From the sequence record OR083247.1: a DNA stretch of 64,000 bases; one strand, 5' to 3'. A program made the position numbers and the translations under genes. The stretch is from Escherichia phage Bf23. The notes beneath the pieces were generated by a model. The model saw only the letters and a program-made list of their open reading frames with translations. It had not been told where the DNA came from and searched no databases. Positions 5,377 to 22,424 of this stretch are shown piece after piece. Every line of letters starts with the position of its first letter. Within the stretch, counting starts at the first letter, position 1.

Positions 5377-5458
5377 TTATCCACAAGTTTATTAACAGCA
5401 CAAAATGATTTGACACGATAGGCGGCGATATAAAGACTTATCCACAGACTTATCCACA
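5377..5458 (+). promoter_or_regulatory. three direct perfect DnaA boxes TTATCCACA (5377, 5438, 5450)
   Basis: exact 9-mers read in sequence, inside a non-coding AT-rich region. Confidence 0.65.
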
Positions 5459-5468
5459 GGTTATCCTA

Positions 5469-5484
5469 CTGTATAAATATACAG
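5469..5484. repeat. 16-bp perfect palindrome CTGTATAAATATACAG (copy 1)
   Basis: identical palindrome recurs at 8956-8971. Confidence 0.7.
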
Positions 5485-5750
5485 GGTAAATGGGTAGTGT
5501 TAACAACTGCAATCAATTTTAAGCGGCCTAAAACGCTTTCTAACGAGCTAAATGCGGTGGGGTAATATTAAAGTAAAGCCTTCACCCGTCGCCCTGGTGG
5601 CTTCGCCGTGTTTTGCTCTTTACTATACCGCTGCGCGGTTAACATAAAAATAAGCGTTAGGCAAGGAAAATAAAAAGGTAAAATAATATTTGCCCCTAGA
5701 AAGAAAATACCTTTATCATTCACTCACCGATTAACGAGGGAGGCCAACAA

Positions 5751-7407: not shown

Positions 7408-7638
7408 ATGGTTGCATATTCTTCTTCTGACGCTCTTTTCACTGGAAAAGGCTGGGTATCAAATCGCTGGATCATTCATGAAATGGTGCAAGAATACGGC
7501 ATTGCTAAAACTTACACTACCATCCAGGCGCTTTATGATAATGATCAAATTGATCAGCAAACGGCTGGTTTTTTGCTGGATACCCTGAAAGCGGAGCACT
7601 GTACTAAAAAACAAGCCGCCAAAATTGTTTTAATGTAA
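7408..7638 (+). CDS. hypothetical protein
   Basis: 76-aa ORF with RBS 'ggagg'; hairpin after stop. Confidence 0.45.
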   Translation: MVAYSSSDALFTGKGWVSNRWIIHEMVQEYGIAKTYTTIQALYDNDQIDQQTAGFLLDTLKAEHCTKKQAAKIVLM

Positions 7639-7836
7639 TTAATAACGGGGCGTTACTTTCGCCCCGCTAACTAGGAGAATGAAAATGGTTATTTTTCGAG
7701 CTATTCTAGCAGGTATCTTGGGCGCTATTTTATCCCTTTTTGCTATAGCTTTTGGCGTTCACGCGGTTACTATTGGTGCTGGCATTGCTGTATTTTCTTA
7801 TCTGCTGGGCTGCATGACTAGTAAAGGAGAATAAAA

Positions 7837-8049
7837 ATGATCCGCAACGTTTCTCTTGCACGTTCGAAAGGCTTTAAGCTGGTGGATGTTAACACGTTCG
7901 AGCGGGAAGATTGTAAAATCGAATATGTAGCACGTAATAAAAATGCCTTTCGTGTTACCGAGAAAAAATTCGATAAGCGGGGCAACGTGATAGCTGAAAC
8001 GGTTAAACATTTTGCCACCTTTTACGCTGCATTTCGTGGGGTACTATGA
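7837..8049 (+). CDS. hypothetical protein
   Basis: 70-aa ORF with RBS 'aaaggaga'. Confidence 0.4.
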   Translation: MIRNVSLARSKGFKLVDVNTFEREDCKIEYVARNKNAFRVTEKKFDKRGNVIAETVKHFATFYAAFRGVL

Positions 8050-8170: not shown

Positions 8171-8517
8171 AAATGGTTATTTATGAAGGCAACCGCTTTG
8201 TTACTAATTGCCGTCCGGCATTACTAGCAAACTACTTAAATCAGCTTTCCCCAGCTTATAAGGGCGTCATTAATATTTATGAAGGCAAGGCGCATTATAA
8301 AATTAATGCGGTCGTTGCCCGTGAACTAGCGTTTCAATTTTTGACCTTTGCATCTTGTGATATTCAGGTCATGGGTGAGGCGTTAATTGCAGAAAATGAA
8401 GATGATTTTATTAATATTTTTCGCAAAGTATGCACCGAGCGCCTGATAATGAAAGGCGCATATATTCAATCCACTGCGGATAGTATTGAAACAGCGTTTC
8501 GAAAGGTGGCACAATGA
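8171..8517 (+). CDS. hypothetical protein
   Basis: ORF-track start trimmed to ATG at 8171, preceded by RBS 'gggagg'. Confidence 0.45.
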
Positions 8518-8818: not shown

Positions 8819-8841
8819 GCGGGGAGCAGATCCCCGTTTTT
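8819..8841 (+). terminator. rho-independent terminator
   Basis: hairpin GCGGGGAGCAGATCCCCG followed by TTTTT. Confidence 0.6.
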
Positions 8842-8955
8842 CACGCCTCCAGTTAAATACCCCTTTGTTTTAGTATCCCCACCAAAATTAAACGCGTTAG
8901 AATGCGATTCAGGACGTTTTAGGCGTATATTAGAATTATTCACTACGTAGGAATA

Positions 8956-8971
8956 CTGTATAAATATACAG
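8956..8971. repeat. 16-bp palindrome CTGTATAAATATACAG (copy 2)
   Basis: exact duplicate of 5469-5484. Confidence 0.7.
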
Positions 8972-8993
8972 TAGAATAACTTGGGGATAAGTC

Positions 8994-9063
8994 TGTGGAT
9001 AACGCCTCAAAATGGCTGGGATTCTGTCAAGTCAAATCGTGCTGTTAATAAGTCTGTGGATAA
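8994..9063 (-). promoter_or_regulatory. two DnaA boxes in reverse orientation (TGTGGATAA at 8994 and 9055)
   Basis: exact reverse complement of TTATCCACA read twice. Confidence 0.6.
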
Positions 9064-9089
9064 CTTAAATAACAGTGTTTCTCACTTCC

Positions 9090-9275
9090 GTTTTTAAATG
9101 CGAATCATTATCATTCGCATTTCACTATCTAACCGATAATCATTCCACTTTTTAAATGAGATTGATTCTCATTTCACTTTCTAAATGCGAATTATTATCA
9201 TTCTCATTCCGCTTTTTAAATGAGAATGATTCTTATTATCATTCTCATTTAGCGCAGGGCAATTGCCCTGCGCTT
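9090..9275. repeat. family of four related palindromic hairpin units plus a perfect 24-bp palindrome AGCGCAGGGCAATTGCCCTGCGCT
   Basis: units of form TTTAAATG(C/A)GAAT...ATTC(G/T)CATT, each an inverted repeat. Confidence 0.6.
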
Positions 9276-9880
9276 TTGTGCAAATCCGACATTTGCTCCA
9301 AGGGTTACGTGCTGGCGTATATGTGCAAATCCGACAATTTTTGGTAGTGTGCAAATCCGACCCGAAAAATTTTTATAGTGTGCGAATCCGACAATGAATT
9401 TTCCTAAAAACTCCAGCAATCACGAACTGCGTTCGAATCCTGTGGGATATGTGCAAATCCGACACGGTTTTTCTAGGGTTAAGATGTGCGAATCCGACAA
9501 GATTTTTGTGACTTCGATGGGAGGGTGTGTGATTGTATAGGTTTGAGGGGAAGATGAGAGAGCGAGAAAAATTTGAGGGGATAGAAGGATGTGGGCGCAG
9601 GATTGGTGCGGAGCACCTGATTTGCGGGGATTTTGGGGAAGAGTTGAGATAATTTGGGAAGATTTGAGATAGGTGCAGAAAAAGTAAAATTTTATTAGCA
9701 AAATGGGGCAAAATAGCTTGACAAGTGAAAATTCTTGTGGATCTAAAAACTCAGGCAATCACGGGCCTTCGGCCCGAAATAATGCTGCTATTTTCAGGAG
9801 AGTAAGAGTTCCTAAAAACTTAGGCGTTTGTGCAAATCCGACCAGTTTTTAAACTCTTGTCAGTGTGCAAATCCGACAGT
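9276..9880 (+). repeat. array of nine direct copies of 14-bp motif TGTGC(A/G)AATCCGAC, irregular spacing
   Basis: copies near 9278, 9323, 9349, 9379, 9451, 9486, 9829, 9864 and one more; a tenth lies at 11654 inside a CDS. Confidence 0.7.
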
Positions 9881-10341
9881 AATTTCTGGAAATGTGTTTT
9901 CAAAAAATGTCTTCTAGAAATAACCGCCCTCCCTATAACCGCCCTGTATTAACCGCCTATTGCTAGAGTTTCTAGGAACATGAAAACCGCCTGGGTTAAC
10001 TAGAGTTTTCCTAGAAACTTAGGAGTCTAGAAGAAAGTGTTGTGCCATCCTAGCAGATGAGCGGCAACAGGTGTATCATCTTGAACACAGATATTGCCAT
10101 TAAAAATATTTAAATAATATAAAGAAAAAGAGACCCCCAATTTCATGAGAGTCTCTCAGGGGGCGCGTGATTAATTACGTGAGTACTCATGCCGTCATAC
10201 CGCTGTTGCTAGGCCGCAAGCTATACGAGACATTCGTGTAATAATCATCGCCCCTAGAGTTAATCAACTAGAGTAGTTGTTAATCTATGAGATTATTATA
10301 ACATGTTTGGGTATGAGAATGCAAGAACTTTTTGTTAACTT

Positions 10342-11055: not shown

Positions 11056-11399
11056 ACATCAGACGCTTGCTCCCCTGTTTCTTTCTTTTCTGGCTTAGGT
11101 TTTCTTGCAATCTCTGCAAAGGTTCCTTTGGTTCTTTCTTTAGCTGGAAGATCTACTTTATACCACAGGATTCCTAATTGTTGCGCTAAATGAGCTATAT
11201 TCTTTGGTGTTATACTTGGAATATCTTCCCTAGCAGAGACTATAGATATTATATCAAATAACTCTCCTATTTTTGGCTTATTAGTAGTTATTAGAATATA
11301 TTCTAATGTTTCTATTTCTACATTTTCATCTTTATAGTAAAGACTAAGAGTAATTAAATCGTCACCAGCAGAAGTTATTTTTGTTTTACCAAATATCAT
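11052..11399 (-). CDS. hypothetical protein
   Basis: 115-aa ORF overlapping its neighbour by 4 nt. Confidence 0.45.
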   Translation of the reverse strand: MIFGKTKITSAGDDLITLSLYYKDENVEIETLEYILITTNKPKIGELFDIISIVSAREDIPSITPKNIAHLAQQLGILWYKVDLPAKERTKGTFAEIARKPKPEKKETGEQASDV

Positions 11400-12007
11400 T
11401 AACTACCCCTCTTATCTTCATTAAGAGCAGCTCCCAACGCCTCAAGGATAGTATCATTTATACTCCCAGGCCTAAGATTATTAAAGTGAGTAACATAGAT
11501 GGGACTTCTAAAACCTTCAGCATCCACAGGCGCTACGCTTTTCATATCAGATTCAAAAGCTTCTTGAGTATGTTTCAACTGTACAGAAGGCCCATAATCT
11601 TCACCAACTCGATAGGACTGATTAGACGACAGCGTACCACCACATGGAACATTGTGCAAATCCGACGTTATTTTAGGATTATTATTTAACAGTGCAATAC
11701 CACTTTTTGACCATGGATCACTAACATGAGTACTAGGACGGTTCACTTCAGTCTTCATGAGTTTATAACCAGCATCTATTAATGCATTAATAAGGTTATC
11801 AGCGGGAATACGAGCCTTGCCAAAAATCTTACGAGCGTTGTTGAGCCTACCTTCAAAGTCTTTACATGCTTTAATACTAGTGTGTGCAAAGGTTAGCTTC
11901 ATAGATTTGAACTGTACAGTGGCAGTTAAATCTTTAAAGCTATAATCCCACGTATTCAATTCGTGATCTGGTACTACTTGAATAGATTGTTGTGCGTATA
12001 AAGTCAT
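11399..12007 (-). CDS. hypothetical protein
   Basis: 202-aa ORF; contains one copy of the 14-bp repeat. Confidence 0.45.
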   Translation of the reverse strand: MTLYAQQSIQVVPDHELNTWDYSFKDLTATVQFKSMKLTFAHTSIKACKDFEGRLNNARKIFGKARIPADNLINALIDAGYKLMKTEVNRPSTHVSDPWSKSGIALLNNNPKITSDLHNVPCGGTLSSNQSYRVGEDYGPSVQLKHTQEAFESDMKSVAPVDAEGFRSPIYVTHFNNLRPGSINDTILEALGAALNEDKRGS

Positions 12008-21671: not shown

Positions 21672-22424
21672 TTATCCAACTAGTGGTTCTAGCTCTAAGT
21701 CACAGAAGTTATACACTTCTAGTTTAAGGTTATTGATACCATCGAATTTATTAACTAATTCGTGAGTAATATATTTTGCAGGAATACCACTTTCAGATGG
21801 ATGATCTGATTTAATAGTGAACTTCTGCTCAGCGGGCACTACATTTACTAGTAAAGAATCCATATCTAAATGGTTTGTTTCTCTGAGTAACTCTCCTTCA
21901 TTGGGGAATCTCACATCTGTTATTACGGCGACATCTGGGTCGTCTTTAGCGATGGATTGCTCCAGAATTATGAGCCAAATGCGTTCATGTACCAGCTGCC
22001 TTCCTAGCTCTGTTCCTACGAGCTGTAACATTTTTCTCGGAGAAATAAATAAACTATAAAGTCCGTCTTCTTTATTCTCTGAGATAAGTTGTTGAGGATT
22101 AAGATATTTTTCCTCAAAAATCGGCCAAACGTACGAGAAGTCTTCAAACTTATCGATACCGTATTTAAACCATACGTCTCTAGCTCGCTCCAATTGAGAT
22201 TGTGTGACCGTAAACCATTGGTCAATCTCTTTCCCCCTGCGCTCTCCTAGAAACTCTGGAGTTACACCGAGGATTACGGATGCAAGTTCATAAACAGGCT
22301 TAGCAAAACTATAACGACGGGCTAAATACATTGGATACGTGTCATTACACCAATCGATAATTAATTTTGCAACGGTATCTTTTCCCGAACCAGCTTCACC
22401 ATGTAAACCGACTAATACTGACAT
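21672..22424 (-). CDS. dnk: deoxynucleoside monophosphate kinase
   Basis: 250-aa ORF; Walker A 'GEAGSGKDT'; size matches T5 dNMP kinase. Confidence 0.6.
   Translation of the reverse strand: MSVLVGLHGEAGSGKDTVAKLIIDWCNDTYPMYLARRYSFAKPVYELASVILGVTPEFLGERRGKEIDQWFTVTQSQLERARDVWFKYGIDKFEDFSYVWPIFEEKYLNPQQLISENKEDGLYSLFISPRKMLQLVGTELGRQLVHERIWLIILEQSIAKDDPDVAVITDVRFPNEGELLRETNHLDMDSLLVNVVPAEQKFTIKSDHPSESGIPAKYITHELVNKFDGINNLKLEVYNFCDLELEPLVG

Follow-up and report, generated by a model that had tools for sequence, protein, structure and literature searches.

The array of short direct repeats at 9277–9877 of the 64-kb window (the whole stretch of DNA that was analysed) is, judged from its sequence, almost certainly direct repeat D (DRD) of T5-like phages, which lies in non-coding Repeat Region 3, the injection-stop region. 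DRD is probably a DNA-level cis element consisting of an array of protein-binding sites. Entry of T5 DNA stops after ~8% of the genome and then restarts, a question open since the 1960s, and a report from 2026 (PMC13250531) still describes the stop and restart of injection as poorly understood. DRD is among the most conserved non-coding elements at the place where T5 injection stops. The sequence feature is already known, and the comparative constraints on it across lineages are new. The function that we tentatively favour for it is that of a possible loading array for the pre-early protein A2.

Identity and copy number of the repeat

An exact search of the window revealed eight + strand copies of the 14-base motif TGTGCRAATCCGAC in the array, starting at 9277, 9322, 9348, 9379, 9450, 9485, 9829, and 9864, with start-to-start spacings of 45, 26, 31, 71, 35, 344, and 35. 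A ninth match in the window, also on the + strand, is located at 11653–11666 within a minus-strand ORF. In 100 dinucleotide-preserving shuffles of the 64-kb window 0.00 exact matches were expected against the nine observed, and the motif is thus not at chance level. No further copies were found in the window when 2 mismatches were allowed; at 3 mismatches the extra matches were weak, scattered, and close to chance level. The first-pass annotation had described nine copies in the array and a tenth inside a CDS. The repeats are real and the outlying copy does lie in a reading frame (ORF 11399–12007, - strand), whereas the exact search puts the count at eight plus one.

Copy 1 (TGTGCAAATCCGAC) occupies 9277–9290 on the + strand, starts 3 nt past the CCTGCGC nick consensus, and is homologous to copy 1 of the T5 record AY587007.1. 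Copies 2 (9322–9335), 3 (9348–9361), and 4 (9379–9392, a G variant, TGTGCGAATCCGAC), all on the + strand, are exact matches with T5 homology. Copy 5 (9450–9463, +) changes its position by 10 bp between lineages, giving spacings of either 71+35 or 81+25, and copy 6 (9485–9498, +), again a G variant, is the last one within the terminal repeat. Copy 7 (9829–9842, +) is the first outside the terminal repeat, at +85 from the boundary, and is followed by copy 8 (9864–9877, +) at +120. The outlying copy at 11653–11666 (+) is the equivalent of T5 direct repeat D copy 10 and is antisense in the homolog of ORF019.

In the T5 record AY587007.1 the copies of direct repeat D have been annotated since 2005 as copy 1 to copy 10, and the pattern given at first pass, when run on this record, matches exactly the ten annotated DRD features. 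Davison has named DRD in a 2020 preprint (10.1101/866236), in which the author's own model gives these repeats no function. Record position 10139 is the end of the left terminal repeat of T5, which encloses copies 1–6; copies 7–9 are just beyond it, and copy 10 is inside ORF019. The right terminal repeat carries copies 1–6 only. The expectation that the array should be duplicated if it lies in the terminal repeat therefore holds in T5 for copies 1–6, whereas copies 7–10 are unique. The window shares with T5 the identical 14-mer, its strand, the order of the copies, and the outlying copy in the ORF019 homolog, and the likeness extends to the flanks with palindrome J and its nick, the G-rich tract, and the LTR end. 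As in T5, the array is found 3' of the DnaA-box inverted repeats and palindrome J and straddles the end of the left repeat. The spacings in T5 are 46, 26, 31, 81, 25, 344, and 35, so that copy 5 of the window is shifted by 10 bp relative to T5, and T5 copy 9 (TGTGCAAATCCGAT, 137 nt after copy 8) is absent from the window.

The ORF that contains the outlying copy (11399–12007, - strand, 202 aa) is the homolog of T5 ORF019, with 86% amino-acid identity. The copy overlies the conserved peptide SD(L/M)HNVPCGG, and no variation is seen at the synonymous sites of TCG, GAT, and CAC among 17 homologs (62–86% identity), in contrast to neighbouring codons. Because the peptide is conserved and the 14-nt segment of the motif ranks only 94th of 610 for conservation, coding constraint explains most of the conservation of this copy. 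Extra selection on the DNA motif in the ORF019 homolog is possible on this pattern of synonymous sites.

Nick, G-rich tract and terminal-repeat boundary

The first bases of the window align with T5 base 1, and the window is accordingly the leftmost 64 kb of a T5-like genome, starting at its physical left end; the pre-early genes dmp, A1, and A2 are present in it, as is usual. A database search with the region gave matches to 447 T5-like phage records, the best at ~92% identity, in agreement with the T5-like assignment made at first pass. The repeat region had also been described as non-coding, and the interval of ~8870–10340 indeed has no long ORF and lies between convergent pre-early (+) and early (-) genes. 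The rightward genes end in a hairpin with a T-run at 8820–8842 (+) and the leftward genes in a terminator at 10128–10157 (-). Since the zone is without long ORFs, bounded by terminators, and placed between convergent genes, a role of DRD at the DNA level is likely.

Immediately before the array, a perfect GC-rich palindrome (AGCGCAGGGCAATTGCCCTGCGCT, T5 palindrome J) at 9251–9274 (+) contains CCTGCGC and is followed by TTTT. By homology to the T5 annotation, the major 7.9% single-strand nick maps between 9273 and 9274; the GCGC of the annotated T5 7.9% interruption lies within the right arm of palindrome J, and the nick is on the - strand. Three candidate roles of the array were rejected. DRD is not the determinant of major nicks, as the next CCTGCGC in the window, at 22236 (~18.5% of a ~120-kb genome), is without DRD. 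A promoter array was dismissed on the grounds that promoter-like matches were weak (just 9/12) and none fell within DRD copies. A known RNA family, and with it a role at the RNA level, was discarded at a best Rfam score of 31.5 bits against a gathering threshold of 90; this best match (9144–9280) reaches just 4 nt into DRD copy 1.

The two DRD clusters are separated by a C-poor tract at 9500–9742 (+) with many G runs and a GC skew of +0.5 to +0.78, which ends in GGGGCAAAATAGCTTGACAAGTGAAAATTCTTGTGGATC. A G-rich tract is common to Pectobacterium phage My1, the Klebsiella-type locus L113, Vibrio phages phi 3 and Bennett, and Proteus phage Stubb. The tract contains many GGG and GGGG runs and makes up the last ~240 nt of the terminal repeat, so that the + strand 3' end at the right terminus of the virion DNA would be G-rich. 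The right boundary of the left terminal repeat (..TGTGGATC on its left, TAAAAACTC on its right) is placed at 9743/9744 by homology to the T5 LTR end and by comparison with seven genomes. Seven genomes contain both repeats, and the right-hand end of each record, a position for which the method is mostly unstated, maps to the equivalent of window position 9743. Six of them are T5-like genomes with DRD at -468 to -257 and at +85, +120, and (+257) from the record right end; in My1, the seventh, DRD is found at -499 to -366 and at +245 to +429. The BF23 paper has reported a 9743-bp DTR obtained by PhageTerm, the same figure as the boundary in the window. The first-pass suggestion of a link to the first-step-transfer pause or the terminal-repeat boundary is therefore sound as far as proximity to the nick (9273/9274) and the boundary (9743) is concerned.

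A second motif, CTAAAAACTC(C/A)(A/G)GCAATCAC, had been described as interleaved with the first. It is real, but only two full copies are present in the window, CTAAAAACTCCAGCAATCAC at 9404–9423 (+) and CTAAAAACTCAGGCAATCAC at 9743–9762 (+), the latter starting at the last base of the terminal repeat. The shorter form TTCCTA(A/G)AAACT occurs at 9401, 9809, and 10008. In addition, 20 nt beyond the terminal-repeat boundary, on its right side, there is a hairpin with a UUCG-type loop (GGGCCTTCGGCCC) at 9763–9776, which does not vary among 18 aligned T5-like sequences, is not followed by a T-run on either strand, and has no Rfam match.

Several other elements are found next to the array. The palindrome TACTGTATAAATATACAGTA at 8954–8973 is T5 palindrome D and abuts the DnaA boxes. 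It is one position off the E. coli SOS-box consensus TACTG(TA)5CAGTA, for which shuffles predict 0.02 matches. An SOS-box-like copy with 3 mismatches occurs at 5467–5486 in the inverted partner region, and CTGT-N8-ACAG palindromes are found at the equivalent place in L113, phi 3, Bennett, and Stubb. Repeated 7-1-7 palindromes (TGCGAATCATTCGCA, TGAGAATGATTCTCA; T5 direct repeats C/E) are present at 9096–9251 and are kept in My1, L113, and Stubb. They resemble, with symmetric mismatches, the Fur-box core TGATAATNATTATCA, and could be candidate sites for a dimeric protein. Beyond the array, the motif AACCGCCCT is repeated 2–3 times at 9923–9960 (ATAACCGCCCTCCCTATAACCGCCCTGTATTAACCGCC), and it is also found near the array in My1 (L074, 2536–2570), in the Klebsiella-type L113 (10763–10810), and in Stubb (L126, 12098–12110); from these occurrences it looks like another conserved element. 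Exact DnaA boxes (TGTGGATAA) number five against 0.56 expected, all in two inverted-repeat regions; by exact search the only sites in the window are at 8994–9002 and 9055–9063 and, on the - strand, at 5377, 5438, and 5450. Every exact box is paired, at 3 bp, with a variant box (GGGGATAA, TGTTAATAA). These boxes match the description given by Davison (10.1101/866236), and the Vibrio and Proteus phages have such boxes too. The same preprint makes no mention of LexA or SOS.

Conservation in close and distant relatives

About 40 T5-like loci were examined in a scan of IMG/VR. In approximately 30 of these the spacings 46, 26, 31, 71/81, 35/25, ~343, and 35 recur in full or in part, and the remainder have divergent spacings. 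Typical arrays of the Tequintavirus/Epseptimavirus type have all copies on one strand, spaced by 45/46, 26, and 31, then by 71+35 or 81+25, and further by 342–344, 35, and often 137. The distance from copy 4 to copy 6 is 106 in the arrays that keep copies 4–6, with the exception of locus L109 (107). In most loci that reach far enough, the ORF019 homolog holds a final copy at a further distance of 1.7–2.6 kb. Insertions or missing or extra copies are seen in a minority (e.g., L084, L114, L035, and L038), and the more distant lineages have spacings of their own. Alignment showed that the entire region is highly conserved among close relatives, and for this reason close relatives alone cannot single out the motif as the selected unit.

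The motif is also present in distant relatives, so that the conservation in related phages on which the first-pass proposal depended is observed at both ranges. The T5-, Klebsiella-, Pectobacterium-, and Vibrio-phage lineages all retain the core GTGCAAATCCGA(C/T), invariably on a single strand. In a set of 60 copies taken from six genomes, the information content is 1.2–2.0 bits at every one of positions 1–12 of the core, and the flanks are nearly without information apart from a mild T-richness 6–8 nt downstream. Pectobacterium phage My1, whose A1 is 66% identical, has 6+4 copies of AGTGCAAATCCGA(C/T), and the counts in Klebsiella-type phages are 5+3 or 5+6. Vibrio phage phi 3 (A1 34%) carries GGTGCAAAACCGAT at least 12 times, in many cases as a 17-bp tandem repeat, and Vibrio phage Bennett (A1 31%) has about nine, more degenerate, copies. 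Metagenomic Demerecviridae-like contigs contain copies in 15-bp tandem. Because copies can be as close as 13–17 bp, the footprint on each must be small. Proteus phage Stubb has one degenerate copy (TGTGCGTAATCGAC) and no array. A scan of IMG/VR with a two-copy pattern found arrays only in Demerecviridae-like contigs encoding A1, A2, and dmp.

The position of the array relative to its landmarks is conserved as well. The first copy lies 1–4 nt after YGCGC in five of the six lineages, Stubb included, and no other positional feature is retained so widely. On this comparison it is the nick at the first-step-transfer end, with its hairpin, that anchors the array, and not the boundary of the repeat. 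The G-rich tract ending at the terminal-repeat boundary (~9743) interrupts the array in most lineages. The annotated repeat end of phi 3, at 7769, falls inside the array and does not fit a picture of the boundary lying between clusters. In the same genome (L125) a 107-bp segment is duplicated at 99% identity at this annotated end (7635–7848), a duplication that could be an assembly artefact, and a separate array of ~7 copies of AAAATGCTAGAAGTGA occupies 8270–8460, the place of the right DRD cluster of T5-like phages. The terminal repeat predicted by PhageTerm for Stubb (L126) ends exactly after CTGCGC (11410–11415), the homolog of the T5 7.9% nick, and a boundary-like sequence, GGGG..TTGACAAAAATTTACGGGGG, is found ~750 bp past 11415. 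The annotated repeat end at 11415 fits the picture no better than that of phi 3 and may, from this coincidence, be the nick read as a terminus. Overall, the invariance of the 13-nt core across subfamilies, the anchoring to the nick and hairpin, the frequent bracketing of the boundary, and the co-occurrence with A1/A2 are comparative constraints that make DRD a direct experimental target, contained in one 600-bp fragment.

Possible functions and comparison with known repeat systems

Studies of T5 have established that A1 and A2 are required for second-step transfer by a mechanism that is unexplained (10.1101/866236; PMC13250531), and A2 is described in the same literature as a DNA-binding pre-early protein. 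The 13-nt asymmetric core GTGCRAAWCCGA(C/T) is a probable site for one molecule of a sequence-specific DNA-binding protein conserved in the Demerecviridae, for which A2 would be the best phage-encoded candidate. The binding-site array proposed at first pass is a reasonable, though putative, reading. We tentatively favour, as a possibility suggested by the arrangement of the sequences, that DRD is a loading array on which A2, with A1, restarts second-step transfer. The array starts 3 nt past the 7.9% nick and hairpin, the putative end of the first-step-transfer DNA, and all copies are oriented along the direction of DNA entry, so that the DRD sites would be the first to emerge when transfer resumes. 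A2 (with A1), expressed from the DNA already injected, would load on successive copies, and this loading would capture or ratchet the stalled DNA and restart the transfer of the remaining 92% of the genome. The copies past the repeat boundary and the copy in ORF019 would extend the loading zone. That DRD is the missing cis element of the two-step transfer of T5, worked by an A2 plus A1 ratchet, and possibly a single module for both entry and terminus formation, is a wider proposal that we hold to be rather unlikely.

Properties of A2 itself bear on this favoured reading. The PHROG label of A2 is DNA-binding, tblastn found the protein to be restricted to the Demerecviridae, and a helix-turn-helix-like stretch (S..SVR.KL) is invariant in six of six lineages. 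The AF2 model has a pLDDT of 82.5, with helix-turn-helix-like helices at 41–50 and 55–64 of pLDDT ~90. A Foldseek search of the model against the PDB gave no match below E=1, and searches of the A2 sequence against the PDB and against Pfam gave no match; given that no significant structural relative was found, the case for A2 as a sequence-specific helix-turn-helix protein is at most suggestive. As A2 and DRD have the same family-wide distribution, distribution cannot identify the binder, and the array is not obligatory, since Stubb has a conserved A2 and one degenerate copy. Also counting against A2 as the ligand of the array, the split around the end of the terminal repeat has no explanation in the loading model, and the 13-nt site is constant while phage proteins diverge to 30–40% identity, as would be expected for the site of a host protein.

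The split would be accounted for if the DRD clusters were sites for the terminase small subunit, or for an accessory factor, that position the cut at the right end of the repeat, which by a last-in-first-out rule would be packaged first. Such a role is doubtful, although the record right end falls in the gap between the clusters in each of the seven genomes with both repeats, the split is also seen in Klebsiella-type phages (5+3, 5+6) and, by homology, in Bennett, and both T5 and My1 have the G-rich tract and GGGGCAAAA..TTGACAA.TGAAAA before the cut and AAAAAC after it. Repeats on both sides of a cut would also resemble P1 pac and SPP1 pacL/pacR. However, the distance from cluster to boundary varies widely between lineages (~-80 to -500), the nearest copies lie 85–470 bp from a repeat end that most records give without stating how it was obtained, and there is no DRD at the left boundary of the repeat. 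A terminase site would be expected wherever a homologous terminase and the same type of terminus occur; phi 3 has no right cluster, Stubb has no array, and its single copy lies ~750 bp from the boundary-like sequence. The packaging direction of T5 is itself inferred, and a literature search on terminase recognition or packaging direction in T5 found nothing specific.

Phages of Escherichia, Salmonella, Klebsiella, Pectobacterium, and Vibrio have divergent proteins but a constant site, which could also mean that DRD is bound by a conserved protein of the gamma-proteobacterial host, either DnaA at low affinity with a second factor or another host protein, and forms one cluster of host-factor sites with the neighbouring DnaA and LexA-type boxes. 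The co-conservation of the DnaA boxes and the SOS-box-like palindrome would be a parallel. We consider a host protein quite unlikely. The first nine bases of the motif (TGTGCAAAT, or GGTGCAAAA in Vibrio phages) match, as reverse complement, 8/9 of the relaxed DnaA box, and this half is oriented as are the true boxes at 8994 and 9055; but the 3' half, CCGA(C/T), is at 1.5–2.0 bits as conserved as the DnaA-like half, which a 9-bp DnaA site cannot explain. The spacings of DRD (13–46 bp) differ from the 11-bp phasing of oriC low-affinity arrays, and arrays are confined in the IMG/VR scan to Demerecviridae contigs. We know of no convincing match of the 13-mer to host regulator motifs (CRP, Cra, PurR, FadR, IHF, Fis, and sigma factors). 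A plain cluster of DnaA boxes was rejected, as DRD gives ATTTGCACA or ATTCGCACA, 8/9 or 7/9 to the relaxed consensus TT(A/T)TNCACA (10.1101/866236). An iteron-like element of replication or recombination, acting in duplication of the repeat from concatemers, in circularisation, or in cleavage by A1/A2, is very unlikely. Clustered short repeats in the same orientation would resemble iterons, and a site-specific nick in the - strand directly adjoins the first copy. In the restriction-site model of Davison, A1/A2 are postulated to cleave both repeats at a site on the right of the stop signal (10.1101/866236). The same preprint places the reported T5 origins near the centre of the genome, the other candidate major-nick site (22236) is without DRD, the tract between the DRD clusters is G-rich and not AT-rich, and there is no adjacent initiator-like gene, the neighbouring ORFs having no Pfam match and belonging to PHROGs of unknown function.

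Repeated protein-binding elements beside a terminase cut occur in several phages, including the hexamer clusters of P1 pac, the pacL/pacC/pacR sites of SPP1, and the R sites of lambda cosB. The T5-like phages are similar in that the repeat end sits in a gap between two DRD clusters. They differ in that the clusters are 85–470 bp from the cut, the right cluster is missing in some lineages, a terminase role is putative, and T5 has exact 10-kb terminal repeats in place of cos or headful ends. In T7, the short-repeat arrays SRL and SRR adjoin the 160-bp terminal repetition, and their function is unclear. T7 offers the likeness of short direct repeat arrays beside an exact direct terminal repeat in a virulent phage, with an unrelated sequence, another unit length, and another phage family as the differences. 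Iterons and the DnaA-box array of oriC share with DRD asymmetric sites in the same orientation, plausibly each bound by a monomer, and the 5' half of DRD matches the DnaA box at 8/9 positions; DnaA recognition does not account for the equally conserved 3' half. Unlike these systems, DRD has neither an adjacent initiator gene nor an AT-rich unwinding element, and its copies are irregularly spaced.
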